NCBI GenBank assembly: GCA_001189155.1
Contig: LFCP01000001.1
Span: 23,160-87,159 of the forward strand
DNA from: Parcubacteria bacterium C7867-006
GTDB lineage: Bacteria > Patescibacteriota > Minisyncoccia > Phycocordibacterales > DATDWN01
Length of the DNA: 64,000 nucleotides
Direction: 5' to 3'
The position numbers were made by a program, and so were the translations under genes. Below are positions 3,924 through 17,594 of this stretch, piece after piece. The notes below the pieces were generated by a model that saw only the letters and a list, made by a program, of their open reading frames with translations, ran no database searches and was not told the origin of the DNA. The stretch's first letter is position 1, and each line of letters starts with the position of its first letter.

Positions 3924-4170
3924 AGCTGAAGTTTGCCTAATTGGCTATTGTGTTGACTGTTGGTAACTGCTATTGACCCACAGAGTCCAGTTTATATAAT
4001 GGTTAAGTACAGAAAAGGTTGTAAATAATATGGCTCAACAAAGCCATATTATAATTCGGAAAACTAGAATATACGTTAAATTTTAGCTTATTTTAGGTCT
4101 ACTACAGGATCCAAAGTTCTGGTCAGGTCTTAAAATCACCTCAAAAGTTTTATTTTTAAAACTAAAACAG

Positions 4171-5211
4171 GTGGGATCTACCATTTCCTCGGTGAACATA
4201 TTTGCGTCAATAATCCCAATTTTTCTAATTTTGACGTTATTTTTAGCCCCAAAAACTACACATGCAGGTGTTAGTGATGTTACCTGTTCTATATTTGGGA
4301 TTTTTTGTCCTGTAGAAGCAGAGACAGAAGAACTAGAGGCAAATTCTCAGAACATGGCCCTTCTTCAAGCTGTCATTTCTCCAGACCCAAAAGCTTCTTC
4401 AACAAAAGATAACTCTGTCATTGTTGGTGGTAATTCCCTTGCTCCAGAGACTCAGGCACCAGAATCTAAATCAATAGAGGATGATCAGATTAGTTTATAT
4501 GTTGTTCATCAGGGAGACACCTTGCCAGCTATAGCCAAGATGTTTGGTGTTACAGTAAACACAATAAGATGGGCTAATGATATAAAAGGTAACACAATAA
4601 GTGTCGGTCAAACTTTGGTAATTCTTCCTATATCTGGAATACAACATACTGTTAAATCTGGAGATACACTTCAAAGTATTGCTAAATTACATAAAGGAGA
4701 TTTGAATGAAATATTGCAATATAACAACTTAACTAAAGATGCAAAACTAGCAATCGGAGATATCATTGTTATTCCAGATGGTGAGGCAACAGTCACAACA
4801 AGTTCTTCTGGAACAAAAACTGGAACTACAAAACCTAGTTCCTCATATCCTGTTTACGATGGTTACTATATGAGACCTATAATAGGTGGAATTAGAACTC
4901 AAGGAGTTCATGGTCATAACGGTGTTGATTTGGCTTCATCATATGGCGCAAAGATTTATGCTGCTGCTGATGGTGATGTTATTATTTCAAGAAGTTCTGG
5001 ATGGAATGGTGGTTATGGTTCATATATTGTAATCAAGCATGGAAATGGAACACAAACTTTGTACGGACATTTGAGTGGAACTGCGGTTTCTGCTGGTCAA
5101 CGTGTTACACAAGGACAGGTAATAGGATATATGGGTAACTCAGGACAGGTAACGGGACATACTGGAGTACATCTACACTTTGAGATTCGTGGTGCCAGAA
5201 ATCCATTTTAA
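4171..5211 (+). CDS. Secreted peptidoglycan hydrolase with two LysM domains and a C-terminal M23 peptidase domain
   Basis: N-terminal signal/TM segment. Two LysM repeats (YVVHQGDTLPAIAKMFGV..., HTVKSGDTLQSIAKLHKG...). M23 motifs HNGVDLA and GHTGVHLHFEIR. Confidence 0.8.
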   Translation: MGSTISSVNIFASIIPIFLILTLFLAPKTTHAGVSDVTCSIFGIFCPVEAETEELEANSQNMALLQAVISPDPKASSTKDNSVIVGGNSLAPETQAPESKSIEDDQISLYVVHQGDTLPAIAKMFGVTVNTIRWANDIKGNTISVGQTLVILPISGIQHTVKSGDTLQSIAKLHKGDLNEILQYNNLTKDAKLAIGDIIVIPDGEATVTTSSSGTKTGTTKPSSSYPVYDGYYMRPIIGGIRTQGVHGHNGVDLASSYGAKIYAAADGDVIISRSSGWNGGYGSYIVIKHGNGTQTLYGHLSGTAVSAGQRVTQGQVIGYMGNSGQVTGHTGVHLHFEIRGARNPF

Positions 5212-9924: not shown

Positions 9925-10881
9925 ATGGCTTCTTTAAAGCAGTTAAAACAACAATTTCTTGAATATATAGAGATAGAAAGAGGACGTTCGGTGAAAACTG
10001 TTGAAAATTACGACCACTACCTTAGTCGTTTTTTTGAATTTATAAAAACAGACAAGCCAGAGGAGATAAAAGATGAGGTTGTGCGACAATTCAGACTTTG
10101 GCTCAACCGCCAACCAACAGGAAATACCAAAGTTCCAAATGAAACTCTCTCTAGAAAAACTCAAAACTACTATCTTATTGCAGTTAGAGCTTTTCTTAAA
10201 TATCTAGCAAGGCAGGAAATCAAATCACTTCCAGCCGAAAGGATAGAGTTAGCAAAAGTCGGAGAACGTTCACTCGATCTTATTACCGAAACAGAGCTTA
10301 ACCGTCTCCTCAATTCTCCAAAAGGTACTGATTTAAAAGATTTAAGAGATAAAGCCATTCTAGAGCTTCTTTTTTCTACCGGTTTACGAGTTTCAGAGCT
10401 ATGTTCCCTTACATCAGATATTGATTTAAGCTCTGACGAAATAAGTATCCGAGGAAAAGGAGGAAAAGTTAGAGTGGTATTTATTTCAGACGAAGCAAAA
10501 AGGCATTTAAGAGCATATCTTTCTGCTAGAAAAGATATGAATGAAGCTTTGTTTGTTCAAGTTGGTGTTGAAATAAAGAAAAAATCAATCCAGAGCAAAA
10601 ACGGAGTTAAGAAAAATGGAGAAAAAGAAATCGGAGCCTTAACTAAGCGTTCTATAGAGAGAATTGTAAAACAACACGCCACAAAAGCTGGTATTTCTAA
10701 AAAAGTTACCCCGCATACCATAAGACACCTTTTTGCTACAGGGCTTCTTTCAAATGGTGCAGATATTCGGTCAGTTCAAGCAATGCTTGGACATTCGAGT
10801 ATTGTCACAACACAGATATATACTCATGTTACTGATAAACATTTAAAAGATATTCACAAGAAGTTTCATAAAAAGAACTAA
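9925..10881 (+). CDS. xerC: Tyrosine recombinase XerC/XerD family
   Basis: SAM-like N-terminal domain. C-terminal catalytic motifs HTIRHLFAT...LGHSSIVTTQIYTHV. Carries an internal Lys-rich insertion. Confidence 0.85.
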   Translation: MASLKQLKQQFLEYIEIERGRSVKTVENYDHYLSRFFEFIKTDKPEEIKDEVVRQFRLWLNRQPTGNTKVPNETLSRKTQNYYLIAVRAFLKYLARQEIKSLPAERIELAKVGERSLDLITETELNRLLNSPKGTDLKDLRDKAILELLFSTGLRVSELCSLTSDIDLSSDEISIRGKGGKVRVVFISDEAKRHLRAYLSARKDMNEALFVQVGVEIKKKSIQSKNGVKKNGEKEIGALTKRSIERIVKQHATKAGISKKVTPHTIRHLFATGLLSNGADIRSVQAMLGHSSIVTTQIYTHVTDKHLKDIHKKFHKKN

Positions 10882-12053: not shown

Positions 12054-13520
12054 TTATTTAACGTGATGACTAGAACGGATTTTTTTGATTTCCTCTTCGT
12101 CAGCTTCTTCTTTAGACATTTTACCTTTTTCTCCAAGTGCCTCAAGTTCCTTAATCGGTAAATTAACTAGTATTTTAGCCTTATTTTCCAAATATTCAGC
12201 TGTATTTTTTTTTGGATCTTCTAAAACTTCCTCTAGTAACGCATGCAAAATATAACCAATTTTGGGTCCTGGAGTAATTTCTGTAACTTCCATTATTTTT
12301 TTACCATCAATCTTTAACATTCCAACAGAAATTGGGTCACGAAGAGCCTCTTCTATCATCGCATGATATTTTCGGAGACGGTAGGGGTCTTCTTTGGGTC
12401 TACCAGTCCCTATACGGTCGCATATGCGTAGATTCATCAAATCCCATATATTCTCTCGTCCAACATTTACAATCATTCTACGGACCGCTGAGAGCGTTAT
12501 TTGCTCTGTGTCAGAAAAGAACATATGCCAACGGACCATATTGGTAACTTTTTCAATAATTTTTGTTGGATATTTGAGATTCGTAAGGATTTTTTTTGTA
12601 GTTCTTGCTCCAAGTACTTCATGACCATAAAAAGTCCAAGTATCTTGTTCTTTCCCCCATCTTCTAGATTCCGGTTTAGAAATATCGTGGAATAGAGCCG
12701 CCAAACGGAGATCTAGGGGGTATTTTTTATCAGCAGCTCCCTGCAAAGAACGTAGTAAATGTTCCCAAACATGATATGAGTGTGCCCTGTTTTGCTCTAC
12801 TCCCACAGTTTTTTCTAATTCAGGAACAATGTAAGGTAATAAACCTAGTTTTTTTATGGCCAATAAACCATCCATTGGTCTATCGGACATAATTATTTTT
12901 GTGAATTCATCTCTTACTCTCTCCATTGAGATGTTTTTCAAGAGCTCTGCATTTTCAAATATAGCTTTTTCAGTGTTAGCTTCTATTTCAAAGCCTAATT
13001 CAGCTGAAAATCTAACTGCACGCAGTATTCGAAGACCATCTTCCTTAAAACGACTAACAGAATCCCCTACAGTTCTGATTATTTTATTTTCTATGTCATT
13101 TTGTCCCCCAAATAGGTCAATTATCTCTTTTTTTGATGTAGAGTAAGCCAAAGAGTTCATTGTGAAGTCCCTTCTTTTTAGATCATCTTCTATTTTTTGG
13201 CTAAAAATAACGGTATCAGGGTGTCTATTGTCGGAATATTCCCCTTCTATTCTGTATGGAGTAACTTCAATAACAGTAAGGGTTGGATCAGTTGTTTCCT
13301 CGTTTACAACCCCGACTGTTCCAAAGGTATTTTCGTAAAAAGTCTTTGGAAATAAAGCGATAATCTCATCTGGTTTTGCATTTGTTGTAATATCCCAATC
13401 CTTTGGAGTTTTATTTAACAAAAGATCTCTTACGCATCCACCTACGACAAAAGCCTCAAAACCATCTTTTTCAAGTTGCTCTGTTACATATGAAACTTCT
13501 GTTGGAATTGAGAATGTCAT
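12054..13520 (-). CDS. cca: CCA-adding tRNA nucleotidyltransferase with an HD domain
   Basis: GGCVRDLLL...DWD polymerase-beta motif plus an HD motif (HD..K); 488 aa. Confidence 0.85.
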   Translation of the reverse strand: MTFSIPTEVSYVTEQLEKDGFEAFVVGGCVRDLLLNKTPKDWDITTNAKPDEIIALFPKTFYENTFGTVGVVNEETTDPTLTVIEVTPYRIEGEYSDNRHPDTVIFSQKIEDDLKRRDFTMNSLAYSTSKKEIIDLFGGQNDIENKIIRTVGDSVSRFKEDGLRILRAVRFSAELGFEIEANTEKAIFENAELLKNISMERVRDEFTKIIMSDRPMDGLLAIKKLGLLPYIVPELEKTVGVEQNRAHSYHVWEHLLRSLQGAADKKYPLDLRLAALFHDISKPESRRWGKEQDTWTFYGHEVLGARTTKKILTNLKYPTKIIEKVTNMVRWHMFFSDTEQITLSAVRRMIVNVGRENIWDLMNLRICDRIGTGRPKEDPYRLRKYHAMIEEALRDPISVGMLKIDGKKIMEVTEITPGPKIGYILHALLEEVLEDPKKNTAEYLENKAKILVNLPIKELEALGEKGKMSKEEADEEEIKKIRSSHHVK

Positions 13521-13572: not shown

Positions 13573-13644
13573 TGCACCCGTAGCTCAACGGATAGAGTAC
13601 CGGTCTTCGGAACCGTGGATGTGGGTTCGATTCCTGCCGGGTGC
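13573..13644 (+). tRNA. tRNA-Arg (anticodon TCG); no encoded CCA
   Basis: Manual fold: acceptor GCACCCG/CGGGUGC, GGUUCGAUUCC T-arm, anticodon loop CUUCGGA. Confidence 0.8.
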
Positions 13645-13797
13645 ACAATTTGTTTTTATAGTGCGGGATACACGACTCGGAAACCCAAGGTTTTCCGACG
13701 CTCGTTTCACTCGCTGCCTTCCTCCACGGAAAACTACCGTTTTCCGACCCTTTCCCACCGCTACCCACACAAAACATTCGCTATGCTCATTTATTTG

Positions 13798-13868
13798 TGC
13801 GGGTAGCGGTAATCGAAACCGCGTCTCGTCCTTGGCAAGGACGTGTTCTACCACTAAACCATACCCGC
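13798..13868 (-). tRNA. tRNA-Gly (anticodon GCC)
   Basis: Minus-strand GCGGGUA acceptor, anticodon loop UUGCCAA, T-loop UUCGAUU. Confidence 0.8.
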
Positions 13869-14750: not shown

Positions 14751-14823
14751 CGGAGTGTAGTGTAACGGCTAACATTCCTGTTTTGGGAACAGGCGACTCC
14801 GGGTTCGAATCCCGGCACTCCGA
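14751..14823 (+). tRNA. tRNA-Pro (anticodon TGG)
   Basis: Acceptor CGGAGUG/CACUCCG, anticodon loop UUUGGGA, T-arm CCGGGUUCGAAUCCCGG, discriminator A. Confidence 0.8.
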
Positions 14824-14876
14824 CGGAATTTTTAAAATCAATTCCAGAAACATGTTATGTTTCTGTGGTCCGCAGG

Positions 14877-14911
14877 AAGGCGACTCCGGGTTCGAATCCC
14901 GGCACTCCGAC
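14877..14911 (+). repeat. Direct repeat of the tRNA-Pro 3' end (variable loop, T-arm and acceptor 3' strand), 55 nt downstream of the gene
   Basis: ggcgactccgggttcgaatcccggcactccgac is identical to 14790..14822. Confidence 0.75.
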
Positions 14912-15418: not shown

Positions 15419-16546
15419 TTATTTATTTAACTCGTCGGTTATTAGTTTTGTTAGTTCTGGTGCTGTGGTGCTTGCAAACATTTTTGCAAAATCTCCTGGA
15501 TCCTGAGATAGGAATTGAGCAAAATTAATTTTCAGCTCTCTTTGTAGGTCTCTGTTTATGTATGCGAGAGTTATAGCATTTAAACCTCTTTGGCTTGTTG
15601 TATCTCCGTCTGAACTAGTAGATATAACACCTATGAGTGTAGCTTTTTTATCAACTACGAGTCCTCCAGATGAGCCCTTTTGAGAAACAATTGTGCCTCC
15701 GACCGAAATAATATCAATAGTTCCATCTTTGAAAGTATAAACATCTTGAATATTTGTTATTGAGCTTGTTATATTCAGATTTTGCAGTATTGATAATCCA
15801 CCTAAAAATCCAGCAGGGTAGGAGACAAGTATTACTGGTTCATTTATCTCTATATTTTCACGAACATTCATAGTTATAAACGGTAACTGCTCTGGAAGGT
15901 TTGAGTTGTCTATCATTTTTGTTATTCGCAAGAAAGCAAAATCATCTTCGCCCGTACCTTTTGGATTTTGTTCTTTTAGTTCTGTTTTGTTATTTGCTAC
16001 CCAAGTAGGGGATATGTAAACCAGTTCCAAGTTGTATGTTGGGTATGCGGGGCTTCCTGTTCTAGCAACACATTGAATAAAATCTTTTTCTCTATAATCT
16101 TTTAGTAATAAATATTGTGCTACGTGTGCGTTGGTTAATATAAGACCGTTCGGTTCAACTATGGCTCCGGTCCCAGATATTGGGTTTAACTCTCCACCTT
16201 TCGTTGTACACAAAATATTCACTGTAGCTTTTCTAGCAAAAGTGTTTATTGCTTCAAAATCTGGTGTAGGTTCAGGAGCTTTTGGGATTTGGGGTTGGAC
16301 AACTACTTCCGGTGTTGTTTTTTGAACCTCTGCCGGCTTTTTTACTGTAGTTTTTTTAGTCTCTGTTGTAGTGGGTTTGGTGTCTTTTATTGTTTTTATT
16401 ATTGAAGATGTTGCTATCGCAATTGTGTTTGTTGTGGTTGCTTGGATAGAAATAGGTTCTTCTGGAGCAACATACACTTTAGTGTTTGTTCCTCCCAGAA
16501 ACATTAAGTGGGCCAATATGAAAGATATGACTGTTTTAATAAACAT
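15419..16546 (-). CDS. Secreted trypsin-like (S1 family) serine protease with a Thr-rich linker
   Basis: N-terminal signal/TM segment. LILTNAHV (His region) and GSSGGLVV (Ser region). Confidence 0.65.
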   Translation of the reverse strand: MFIKTVISFILAHLMFLGGTNTKVYVAPEEPISIQATTTNTIAIATSSIIKTIKDTKPTTTETKKTTVKKPAEVQKTTPEVVVQPQIPKAPEPTPDFEAINTFARKATVNILCTTKGGELNPISGTGAIVEPNGLILTNAHVAQYLLLKDYREKDFIQCVARTGSPAYPTYNLELVYISPTWVANNKTELKEQNPKGTGEDDFAFLRITKMIDNSNLPEQLPFITMNVRENIEINEPVILVSYPAGFLGGLSILQNLNITSSITNIQDVYTFKDGTIDIISVGGTIVSQKGSSGGLVVDKKATLIGVISTSSDGDTTSQRGLNAITLAYINRDLQRELKINFAQFLSQDPGDFAKMFASTTAPELTKLITDELNK

Positions 16547-16632
16547 TGGTTAATTATAGCACTTTAGTTATAGTACTCATTTGATAGAGGATTTATTTTC
16601 TGGTATGATGGCCTAGTTGAGATAGTGAATAT

Positions 16633-16703
16633 GCGGGATTAGTTTATCGGTAAAACGACAGTTTTCCAAACTGTAGTGAGCGGTTCGACTCCGCTATCCC
16701 GCA
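16633..16703 (+). tRNA. tRNA-Gly (anticodon TCC)
   Basis: Acceptor GCGGGAU/AUCCCGC, anticodon loop UUUCCAA, T-arm AGCGGUUCGACUCCGCU. Confidence 0.8.
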
Positions 16704-16749
16704 CAGACGAAAGGCCCCTCGAAAGAGGCGGCCTTTCGCTTTTAGCGGG

Positions 16750-16960
16750 ATAGCGGAGAGAGGGGTCGGGAGAGGATACTCTCCCGTGGAGGAAGGTGAG
16801 GTTGGGATGGGACCCAACCGCAAGACCTTTTTCAGGTATTTTATGAGCAGAGCGAAATAAAATACCGAAAAGGTGTACTGCTCCTGTAAGGAGGGGAGTA
16901 TTTAAAACCGCCGGTTTCCCAGCCCGCGTATTCCCGCACTTTACAATTATTTTTGTAATG
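16750..16960 (+). other. GC-rich structured non-coding element bracketed by tRNA-Gly-like 5' and 3' end sequences
   Basis: Starts GCGGGAUAGCGG (compare tRNA 5' GCGGGAUUAG) and ends UAUUCCCGCAC (compare tRNA 3' UAUCCCGCACA). Internal hairpins GGGAGAG-GAUA-CUCUCCC, GGUUGGG..CCCAACC and GGUAUUUUAU..AUAAAAUACC. Preceded by a 13-bp terminator hairpin at 16706-16745. Confidence 0.3.
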
Positions 16961-16973
16961 ATAAAGTTCGTTT

Positions 16974-17594
16974 ATGTTAACAGCAACAAGTACAGAATTT
17001 ATACTCCTTTCTCGTCAGGTAGATTATTTGAATAATTCATTTAATTGGGTTGTGGGTGGAATTGGTGTAGTAATTACAATTGTAATTGGAGTTATTGGTC
17101 TGACCCAGTTTTTTTACAATAGAAAATTGATTTCACAAGAATCAGAGGTAATAAAGAAAGATCTTGCTGATGTTGTAAATAAGATAGTGGACGATAAGGC
17201 GCTAAGTTTGCAATCATTTATCGAGGAAAGCATTGCAGATGTAAGGATGGAGTTGGAACTTCAAAAGAAATCAATGGGAGGTGATATTGCAAGAAGTTAC
17301 GCTCTTTCGTGTGAAAAAGATGATCTTCATGCCACTGCATTTAATTGGTGGCTTTCTGCTGCAGAAAATTATGATTCTAGAAATAATGGTTTGTTGCCAA
17401 TGACTATTAAATCAGCAAAAGATTGTCTGGAAAAGATAGTAGCCGGTGATAGTTTTAATATAAAAATATTGTGGGATAAAATGACAGATAATCAGGAAAA
17501 AATAGCTAGACTAAAAATAAAGCACCCCACAGAGGCAAAATTACTTGAAGATTTAATGATGGCGAAAGCTAGTCTTTCAGAAACAAAACTTTAA
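16974..17594 (+). CDS. Hypothetical membrane-anchored protein
   Basis: 206-aa ORF with one N-terminal TM segment (VVGGIGVVITIVIGVIGLTQFF). Confidence 0.5.
   Translation: MLTATSTEFILLSRQVDYLNNSFNWVVGGIGVVITIVIGVIGLTQFFYNRKLISQESEVIKKDLADVVNKIVDDKALSLQSFIEESIADVRMELELQKKSMGGDIARSYALSCEKDDLHATAFNWWLSAAENYDSRNNGLLPMTIKSAKDCLEKIVAGDSFNIKILWDKMTDNQEKIARLKIKHPTEAKLLEDLMMAKASLSETKL

Follow-up and report, generated by a model that had tools for sequence, protein, structure and literature searches.

What is the segment rich in guanine and cytosine (GC) that follows the tRNA-Gly(UCC) gene of Parcubacteria bacterium C7867-006, and what placed it there? The segment, hereafter the islet, lies in a stretch of 64,000 nucleotides (nt) of contig LFCP01000001.1, which was analysed as a whole and is referred to as the window. 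In the original prediction, it was regarded as an attachment (att) site scar enclosing a structured RNA, as an unrecognised non-coding RNA such as a reduced transfer-messenger RNA (tmRNA) or 6S RNA, or as a tRNA gene split by an intron-like insertion. The comparisons reported here show that it is a composite of two structured modules framed by two copies of the tRNA 3' end, the first antisense and the second sense. It is tentatively assigned to a family of small non-coding cassettes, constrained in structure, that recombine at the segment from the T-loop to the 3' end of tRNA genes, and whose RNA is closed by a mimic of the acceptor and T stems. This is the most probable single explanation, although it is held with clear reservations.

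The islet proper comprises 195 nt (16745-16939), so that the predicted islet exists but is shorter than the assumed length of about 250 nt. Its interior has a GC content of 0.47-0.61, compared to about 0.3-0.4 across most of the flanking sequence. The islet RNA folds with a minimum free energy (MFE) of -87.2 kcal/mol (z = -6.4), which was reached by none of 200 shuffled sequences, and both the MFE and the centroid structure are multibranched and closed, with five hairpins. No credible open reading frame (ORF) was found in the islet, the sole candidate being a frame of 59 amino acids (aa) with a TTG start codon antisense to the tRNA. The description as a GC-rich, gene-free segment of several hairpins was confirmed accordingly. 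Between tRNA and islet lies a strong trailer hairpin, which had been predicted at 16706-16745 as a terminator. Intrinsic terminators consist of a GC-rich hairpin with a U-tract immediately after it. Here, the stem is followed by UUUUA alone and the promoter and terminator scan made no call for a terminator on the plus strand, so that the hairpin holds and its role as a terminator is doubtful. In related loci, A- and T-tracts are often present at the trailer hairpins, and across the family the palindrome is continuous with the tRNA end. The same scan found no promoter-like site between the tRNA and the islet.

The brackets of the islet are derived from one part of the tRNA, the segment from the T-loop to the 3' end (S). 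The left bracket, GCGGGATAGCGGAG, had been taken for a copy of the tRNA 5' end, with which it shares only the 7 nt of the acceptor strand. It is an antisense copy of S (S') and matches the reverse complement of CTCCGCTATCCCGC (16689-16702), that is, the end of the T-loop and the 3' strands of the T-stem and acceptor stem, at 14 of 14 positions. A direct copy of the tRNA 5' strands is ruled out because S' holds the complement of the T-loop, of the discriminator and of C74 or CCA. The 14-mer is unique within the window, and a perfect inverted repeat of this length inside about 60 nt has a chance expectation of about 1e-6. The right bracket is the predicted sense copy of the tRNA 3' end, albeit an imperfect one of 16 nt that equals the tRNA's CCGCTATCCCGCAC plus two inserted bases and retains an exact match of 8 nt (TCCCGCAC). 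The related locus L001 has an identical distal arm. S' and the distal S pair with each other in both predicted structures (MFE and centroid) and thereby form the helix P1, which in the modelled fold carries the sequence of the tRNA acceptor stem stacked on the T stem. In the window as well as in L023 and L045, S' is closer to the functional tRNA than to its own pairing partner, which suggests recent copying, as judged from the aligned arms. An AT-rich hairpin (CGCACTTTACAATTA / TAATGATAAAGTTCG; 16935-16970, plus strand) overlaps the distal arm and ends 4 nt 5' of the ATG of an ORF for a 206-aa membrane protein without a Pfam match (16974-17594).

The composite nature of the islet was revealed by the comparison with related loci, for which 55 loci were gathered via the neighbouring RNase Y gene. 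The RNase Y of the window is 93% identical to proteins in metagenome-assembled genomes of the Ca. Zambryskibacteria / Paceibacteria group, the part of the Patescibacteria to which the window belongs. In L001 and L009, a short version of about 92 nt occupies the same place and lacks the central ~105 nt. Over the first 51 nt and the last 37 nt it hardly differs from the window, and the core of L001 is identical at 51 of 51 positions, yet the trailer hairpins are unrelated and the flanks differ. L049, an equally close relative (RNase Y 93% identical), has no islet behind tRNA-Gly(UCC). The islet thus consists of a core, termed type A, and a second module, M, nested in the P3 region of this core. 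The order of type A is GGGUCGG, a hairpin (P2), the invariant linker GUGGAGGAAGG, an optional hairpin and the hairpin P3 (GAAAACC..GGUUUCC). In the islet, P2 is formed by 16767-16774 and 16779-16786 with the loop GAUA, and the motif of P3 (A2, GAAAACC..GGTTTCC) was found in 11 loci. A covariance model of type A (R2) finds the core in 10 loci, with paired bases at 97.5% of the helix positions and double changes in 13 of 17 pairs. It matches the window twice, with 48.6 bits in the islet (16763-16820, plus strand) and in a second element on the minus strand. The latter lies directly 3' of tRNA-Gly(GCC) (13797-13868, minus strand), in the spacer shared with a convergent tRNA-Arg (13574-13646, plus strand), and has its own S' (GTGTGGGTAGCGGT) and distal arm (GTATCCCGCAC). 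This distal arm resembles the end of tRNA-Gly(UCC) more than that of tRNA-Gly(GCC), and the P2 of the element covaries with that of the islet. The second element is also present in L049 and is missing from L001, and in different relatives this spacer holds different elements on either strand.

The central ~105 nt that the short version lacks correspond to module M. Across the family, it consists of GGUGAG, hairpin H1, CGCAAG, hairpin H2 with tandem G.A pairs, GUGUAC(A/U)G and hairpin H3 with the loop UGUAA, and a scan for the exact pattern detected it in at least 120 metagenome contigs. A covariance model (R1) aligned 121 copies, in which 98.2% of the paired positions are paired, although this value is somewhat inflated since the alignment is fitted to the model. 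All 21 of 21 pairs show double changes, the number of compensatory cells is 592 compared to 135 in shuffles, and the covariation score of 0.61 contrasts with 0.05-0.08 for slid partners. Given the magnitude of the covariation and the slid controls, the secondary structure of M is secure. Furthermore, 67 G.U pairs but only 19 A.C pairs were counted, which identifies the modelled strand, the plus strand in the window, as the folded one. Unpaired motifs are conserved as well, and the pattern of substitutions indicates that the secondary structure is under selection. An alternative helix could close M in the window (GGGGAGTAT/ATACTCTCC) and parallels the helices around copies in L139, L149 and L163, for example.

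M often occurs several times per contig, sometimes in tandem. It is enriched near tRNAs, since 36 of 130 copies are found within 300 nt of one, whereas 11.4 would be expected and none of 200 randomisations gave more than 18. Some copies sit within tRNA half-copies, in the T-loop or the anticodon loop, and both orientations occur there. An all-against-all BLAST search of the ORFs within 3 kb of the 130 copies detected no recurring protein, with housekeeping neighbours at no more than 8 of them. The orientation of M relative to neighbouring genes is unbiased (16 downstream starts on the same strand and 19 ends on the opposite strand within 150 nt). In L074 (795-883 and 1-519, both on the minus strand), one copy lies about 280 nt upstream of the 5' end of a 16S ribosomal RNA (rRNA) gene and a second just 3' of a nearby tRNA; the M family is tied to stable-RNA genes in general and not to tRNAs alone. 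L146 (~4030-4435, plus strand) contains a tRNA, probably tRNA-Asn, that is split by a group I intron in its anticodon loop (RF00028, 41.9 bits) and was missed by ARAGORN. Ahead of this tRNA stands an incomplete copy of its 5' part with M at position 26/27, and L171 is alike for tRNA-Ile. A hairpin block with tandem G.A closure and loops such as GAGCGACGGCGAA and GAGCAGAGCGAA recurs up to three times per element (L023, L027, L008 and 16847-16862 of the window). Its sequence recalls protein-binding motifs of the K-loop or sheared-GA kind, and a box C/D-like K-loop is one possible reading of the GAG..CGAA hairpin loops.

The same brackets recur behind other tRNAs. In a census of 151 tRNAs in Patescibacteria contigs, 450 nt on each side were searched for a sense copy of the last 21 nt of the tRNA, and such a copy was found downstream of 46 tRNAs and upstream of none. 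S' followed by S was found downstream of 31 tRNAs and upstream of none, while five cases had the reverse order and a control with shuffled S gave one. The recurrent order is tRNA, hairpin, S', structured interior and S, and it was observed for at least twelve tRNA specificities (Gly, Pro, Asp, Thr, Trp, Tyr, Arg, Met, Val, Leu, Ser and His), with the arms matching the local tRNA in every case. The bracket repeats, with 14 of 14 inverted and 8 exact direct positions in the window, withstood careful alignment, and since they are found behind dozens of tRNAs in other genomes, chance is excluded.

The junctions of these units follow common rules which, like type B and the inserted hairpin described below, were derived from inspection of the sequences and not from a fitted model. 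S' always stops at the complement of T54 (...ATCGAA) and also covers, again as the complement, the discriminator together with C74 or an encoded CCA. The distal S begins at tRNA position 52-60 and ends 0-6 nt past the tRNA. In relatives, S' is often broken by an extra hairpin exactly at the boundary between acceptor and T-stem, and the interior is located at the T-loop; a hairpin would thereby emerge from the S':S helix where the D and anticodon domain would be expected. The interior is of type A, of type B (NCGGAG-hairpin-CGAG..GGGGUCG-hairpin-CGUGACC) or M. In L044, S' and the distal S have both drifted from the tRNA yet still pair (GACAGG / CCTGTC), and orthologous type B elements behind tRNA-Arg in L001, L004, L013 and L025 have diverged with compensatory changes. 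Both observations suggest a function, as far as sequence comparison can tell.

Several loci contain more than one unit (tandem units in L061, L063, L131 and L022). In L061 (6790-7130, plus strand), two identical units of 137 nt, each consisting of hairpin, S', type B and S, follow tRNA-Thr in tandem, and a unit containing M is present behind tRNA-Asp on the same contig. In L080 (52-2500), tRNA-Glu is followed by two genes for small proteins (133 and 112 aa), which form a cassette bounded by a partial S copy. Several units of S', type B and S come next, and the series closes with the 3' half of a tRNA that carries M, reversed, at its anticodon loop. By its layout, this looks like an accretion array that is able to hold ORFs too. 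In the window, tRNA-Pro stands between its own half-copies. The corresponding 3' half-copy in L044 and L016 carries M in reverse orientation in the T-loop, and by this comparison the version in the window is the 'empty' form of the same site. The features of the window are listed in Table 1.

Table 1. Features of the islet behind tRNA-Gly(UCC) and of related sites in the window.
Feature	Position	Strand	Evidence or remark
Promoter-like site TTGATA-17-TATGAT, with TG	16581-16609	+	5' of the tRNA; sole candidate promoter for tRNA and islet
tRNA-Gly(UCC), CCA not encoded	16633-16704	+	ARAGORN; Rfam RF00005, 65.9 bits
Segment S of tRNA-Gly(UCC): T-loop, T-stem 3' strand, acceptor 3' strand, discriminator, C74	16684-16704	+	Part copied 3' of the tRNA
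Trailer hairpin: 9-bp outer stem CGAAAGGCC..GGCCTTTCG, inner CCUC-GAAA-GAGG stem	16708-16738	+	Fold, repeat search
S', GCGGGATAGCGGAG, 5' strand of closing helix P1	16745-16758	+	Inverted-repeat search; MFE and centroid structures
Type A core, 5' part: GGGUCGG, P2 hairpin, linker GUGGAGGAAGG	16763-16796	+	Regular expression in 10 loci; model R2; covariation
Module M, 103 nt: GGUGAG, H1, CGCAAG, H2, GUGUACUG, H3 (CUCC-UGUAA-GGAG)	16794-16896	+	Model R1, 47.2 bits, E = 2.8e-10
GGGGAGTAT, complement of ATACTCTCC (16776-16784)	16893-16901	+	Alternative closing helix for M
Type A P3 hairpin, 3' part: AAAACC-GCC-GGUUUCC-CAG	16904-16922	+	Motif match
Distal sense copy of the tRNA 3' end, CCGCGTATTCCCGCAC / CCGCgTAtTCCCGCAC, 3' strand of P1	16924-16939	+	
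Second type A element	13661-13770	-	Model R2, 76.8 bits at 13676-13750 (-)
tRNA-Pro 5' half-copy, through the anticodon loop	14692-14727	+	
tRNA-Pro	14751-14824	+	Between its own half-copies
Hairpin (14846-14864) and perfect 33-nt tRNA-Pro 3' half-copy (14879-14911)	14846-14911	+	Behind tRNA-Pro

A divergent member of a known RNA class, be it a reduced tmRNA, 6S RNA, signal recognition particle (SRP) RNA, RNase P RNA, group I intron, T-box or other riboswitch, is extremely improbable. Its size of about 195 nt is near that of 6S RNA, its ends are tRNA-like as in tmRNA, and the octamer AAGGUGUA is common to M and the group I introns of the same organisms, although it stands in a different structural context. 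However, Rfam 15 yielded only the four tRNAs of the 64-kb window at gathering thresholds and, at E <= 10, no match in the region 16500-17100 besides the tRNA. Among 18 loci bearing M, nothing matched M itself, and together with 18 further loci only tRNA, rRNA and true group I introns were detected, so that no module of these elements is represented in Rfam 15. The proposed Rfam check, which included tmRNA, 6S RNA, SRP RNA and group I introns, thus left the segment without a known family. A tmRNA has a tRNA-like domain with a T-arm, an acceptor with the alanine identity pair G3:U70 and an internal frame for the tag peptide. The islet has no T-loop, D-arm or tag ORF, its acceptor helix (GCGGGAU/AUUCCCGC) has G3:C, and ARAGORN found no tmRNA in the 64 kb. 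6S RNA is encoded in a single copy and forms a rod in which a large central bubble separates the closing stem from the terminal one, whereas the fold of the islet is multibranched and its modules are multi-copy. A group I intron would interrupt a complete tRNA gene and have a P3-P7-P8 catalytic core recognised by RF00028. A tRNA gene split by an intron-like insertion is discounted, as the islet lies 3' of an intact tRNA, has no D or anticodon arm and is not matched by RF00028, which does match true introns in L146, L061 and L085. SRP and RNase P RNA gave no match to the islet even at E <= 10, and resemblances by eye to RNase P CR-I/P4, SRP domain IV, T-box and glycine or c-di-GMP riboswitches have no Rfam backing. 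A riboswitch or other cis-regulatory leader, which would lie upstream of the genes it regulates in a fixed orientation and contain an expression platform, was also rejected, since M has no orientation bias to downstream genes and no Rfam match.

Two kinds of mobile DNA were rejected as well. Miniature inverted-repeat transposable elements have family-specific terminal inverted repeats, a short target-site duplication of fixed length and near-identical copies per genome. Here, the inverted arms copy the adjacent tRNA, the direct repeat varies between 13 and 26 nt and the copies have diverged with compensatory changes. The primer-binding site of a retroelement is complementary to about 18 nt of a tRNA 3' end including CCA and lies beside an element encoding reverse transcriptase. 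The complementarity to the tRNA 3' end amounts to 14 nt in the window and up to 22 nt including CCA in L064 and L131, but no reverse transcriptase gene is associated, and the DNA 5' of S' is only the tRNA trailer, which offers no template. The M pattern was not matched in viral contigs, and blastn found no similar DNA in phage and plasmid collections. Full-text literature searches returned no description of these modules, the nearest paper being one on group I introns in the anticodon loops of patescibacterial tRNAs (PMC13011429). The element has something of tRNA att sites, of structured intergenic repeats and of tRNA-like RNAs, and it fits no single class.

Of these classes, integrative elements that target tRNA genes are the closest in their boundaries. 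Their tyrosine integrases use an attB in the T-loop, and the identity block of attL and attR runs from the T-loop to the tRNA 3' end. Likewise, a direct repeat of this segment (plus 0-6 nt) brackets the insert, the tRNA remains intact and units accrete in tandem. In contrast to such elements, the insert is only 100-300 nt long, gene-free and made of covarying hairpins, and it carries an antisense copy of the att segment; in the window, the 219 nt between the repeats contain no ORF and hence no integrase. The elements share with REP/BIME, ERIC, BOX, Correia and Rickettsia palindromic elements that they are small, non-coding, multi-copy, modular or nested, hairpin-forming and unbiased in orientation. 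They differ in that divergent copies keep every helix, junction motifs are conserved and the closing stems are taken from the neighbouring tRNA. Like the tRNA-like domain of tmRNA, YrlA (a bacterial Y RNA) and E. coli 3'ETS-leuZ, the islet lies in a tRNA 3' spacer and is probably co-transcribed, with a closing helix that has the acceptor/T-stem sequence and the discriminator. Unlike these RNAs, it mimics whichever tRNA adjoins it.

According to the cassette interpretation, cassettes would enter or be exchanged at the DNA level by recombination within S, the classic T-loop attachment region. This would regenerate the tRNA and leave a displaced copy of S on the distal side. Recombination at this site is inferred because the extent of the sense repeat equals the classical T-loop identity block and because of the arrays, in which new units would join next to the tRNA and push older ones outward. 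Signs of turnover are seen in L049, where the islet is missing, and in L001, where the islet has no M and the second type A element is lacking. As to the RNA, the islet is probably read through from the tRNA promoter, since the only promoter-like site lies 5' of the tRNA and the trailer hairpin has a poor U-tract. The tRNA-like closing helix may then allow RNase P, RNase Z and the CCA-adding enzyme to cut out and stabilise a discrete, folded RNA with a length of about 195 nt. Genes for a CCA-adding enzyme (12054-13520, minus strand) and a XerC/D-like tyrosine recombinase (9925-10881, plus strand) are located a few kb at most from the tRNA cluster, and all four tRNA genes of the window are without an encoded CCA.

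Several points weigh against this interpretation. No recombinase is linked to the elements, as the integrase-like gene at 9925-10881 has the appearance of an ordinary XerC/D and none of the proteins encoded nearby recurs. Most copies of M (94 of 130) are not near a tRNA. Arms specific to one tRNA bar a simple hop to another, which leaves the origin of arms for at least twelve tRNA species unexplained, and insertion by an ordinary tyrosine integrase predicts a direct repeat but not the antisense S'. The orthologous, compensated type B elements behind tRNA-Arg give the impression of a functional RNA gene passed on vertically and not of mobile DNA. That the islet is transcribed, processed and provided with CCA is predicted from the DNA. 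Moreover, look-ups of exact proteins returned either nothing or an identical islet, as in the JGI contig 3300001199 J055_10000064 from the same population, and yielded no pair of filled and empty sites that would fix the insertion boundaries.

The most serious alternative, which is nevertheless rather unlikely, is a resident, vertically inherited and non-mobile gene for a tRNA-mimicking small RNA from the tRNA 3' external transcribed spacer. Such an RNA could work in cis or in trans; it might, for instance, be a decoy or sponge that occupies enzymes which bind tRNA, or tRNA fragments. Its arms would match the tRNA through local duplication and the need to keep the look of an acceptor and T-stem. 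This would agree with the strong covariation of M and type A, with a core that is unchanged between the window and L001 despite unrelated trailer hairpins, with the compensated type B orthologues, with the position of the extra hairpin and with the compensatory change that keeps P1 in L044, and no separate promoter was detected for the islet. It is difficult to reconcile with presence and absence among genomes at about 93% RNase Y protein identity, with nested insertions, tandem units and arrays, and with the same interiors behind a dozen different tRNAs, each with specific arms. M in both orientations and mostly away from tRNAs, and an S' nearer to the functional tRNA than to its partner in the window, L023 and L045, also argue against it. 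A smaller but still appreciable chance is given, by analogy, to a cassette system like that of integrons or CTXphi in which tRNA genes serve as the attachment site. Integron cassettes are inserted at attI, and CTXphi integrates a folded single-strand hairpin site, attP(+), at dif; attC and the CTXphi site are imperfect hairpins with extrahelical bases, one strand of which is recombined by IntI or XerCD, and attC contains an R box. By this analogy, a small single-stranded circle of DNA, or conceivably RNA, would fold by pairing of S' with S. The branched interior would be the counterpart of the terminal structure that varies among attC sites, and the extra bases of the distal arm that of the extrahelical bases. 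A tyrosine recombinase acting in trans would carry out the exchange of one strand with the cognate tRNA gene, between its T-loop and its 3' end, and replication would fix the order tRNA(S), loop, S', cargo and S, an order obtained for a single strand exchange by reasoning and not by computation. Repeated events would build arrays, sometimes with ORFs as in L080. The copy order, a structure kept over variable sequence, the unpaired distal-arm bases and arrays that are in part free of ORFs are shared with these systems. The attachment site being a tRNA and arms that are tRNA-specific over about 20 nt are differences, and an IntI-like gene, an R box (GTTRRRY) and a single-strand circle were not identified here, where no test aimed at them was made.

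Two further explanations are improbable, the second marginally more so. In the one, the element would be guide-RNA-like, with the conserved interior as the scaffold and the copy of the tRNA tail, either S at the 3' or S' at the 5' side, as the guide that steers an effector encoded elsewhere to the tRNA gene; the invariant T-loop GGTTC would then resemble a protospacer- or transposon-adjacent motif. In type V-K CRISPR-associated transposons, homing CRISPR RNAs guide the element to its target, and TnpB uses omega RNAs. As in these systems, the element carries a match to the adjacent tRNA gene, in every case observed, S often starts right after the TTC of the T-loop, a scaffold-like conserved CGUGACC or the H3 hairpin abuts S and the elements are multi-copy. 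Nevertheless, the 3 kb on either side of 130 copies contain no recurrent TnpB, IscB, Cas12 or IS110-like gene, and no CRISPR repeat and no Rfam match to IS605-orfB/omega RNA or other guide families was found. The putative guide would be occluded by pairing of S to S', the start of S varies between tRNA positions 52 and 60, and most copies of M have no tRNA-derived flank. The other explanation is an inert scar, that is, remnants of deleted prophages or islands with the tRNA as attB, without function or dedicated mobility, whose palindromes were perhaps extended by template switching during replication. The direct repeat from the T-loop to the tRNA end as in classical tRNA att sites, the half-copies on both sides of tRNA-Pro and the palindrome that continues from the tRNA end through the hairpin into S' would fit. 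Because of the covariation, with helices kept through hundreds of compensatory changes in interiors that are homologous across many tRNAs and genomes, it is largely refuted. Conserved unpaired motifs, an identical core in different flanks in the window and L001 and an architecture that recurs 31 times in fixed order point in the same direction. Of the original explanations, an att-site scar enclosing a structured RNA came closest to the cassette interpretation, for its T-loop-to-end repeat and its covarying interior were borne out; it failed in that the islet is not inert, its brackets pair with each other and no integrase lies between them.

Patescibacteria have tiny genomes with very little non-coding DNA, and at least a fifth of their sampled tRNA genes are trailed by folded elements free of proteins. 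Whatever their nature, these elements explain GC-rich 'islets' that annotation pipelines leave blank, and the covariance models R1 and R2 are ready for finding further copies. If they are RNA genes, they would constitute a new class of tRNA-mimicking RNAs from tRNA spacers. If they are mobile, they would represent a mode of tRNA targeting in which the element carries both strands of its target, and recombination by hairpin sites or guided by RNA would become conceivable in a phylum whose mobile DNA is poorly known. Should the analogy to integrons and CTXphi prove correct, hairpin-site recombination would gain a new class of system, and the candidate phyla radiation its first described cassette platform.

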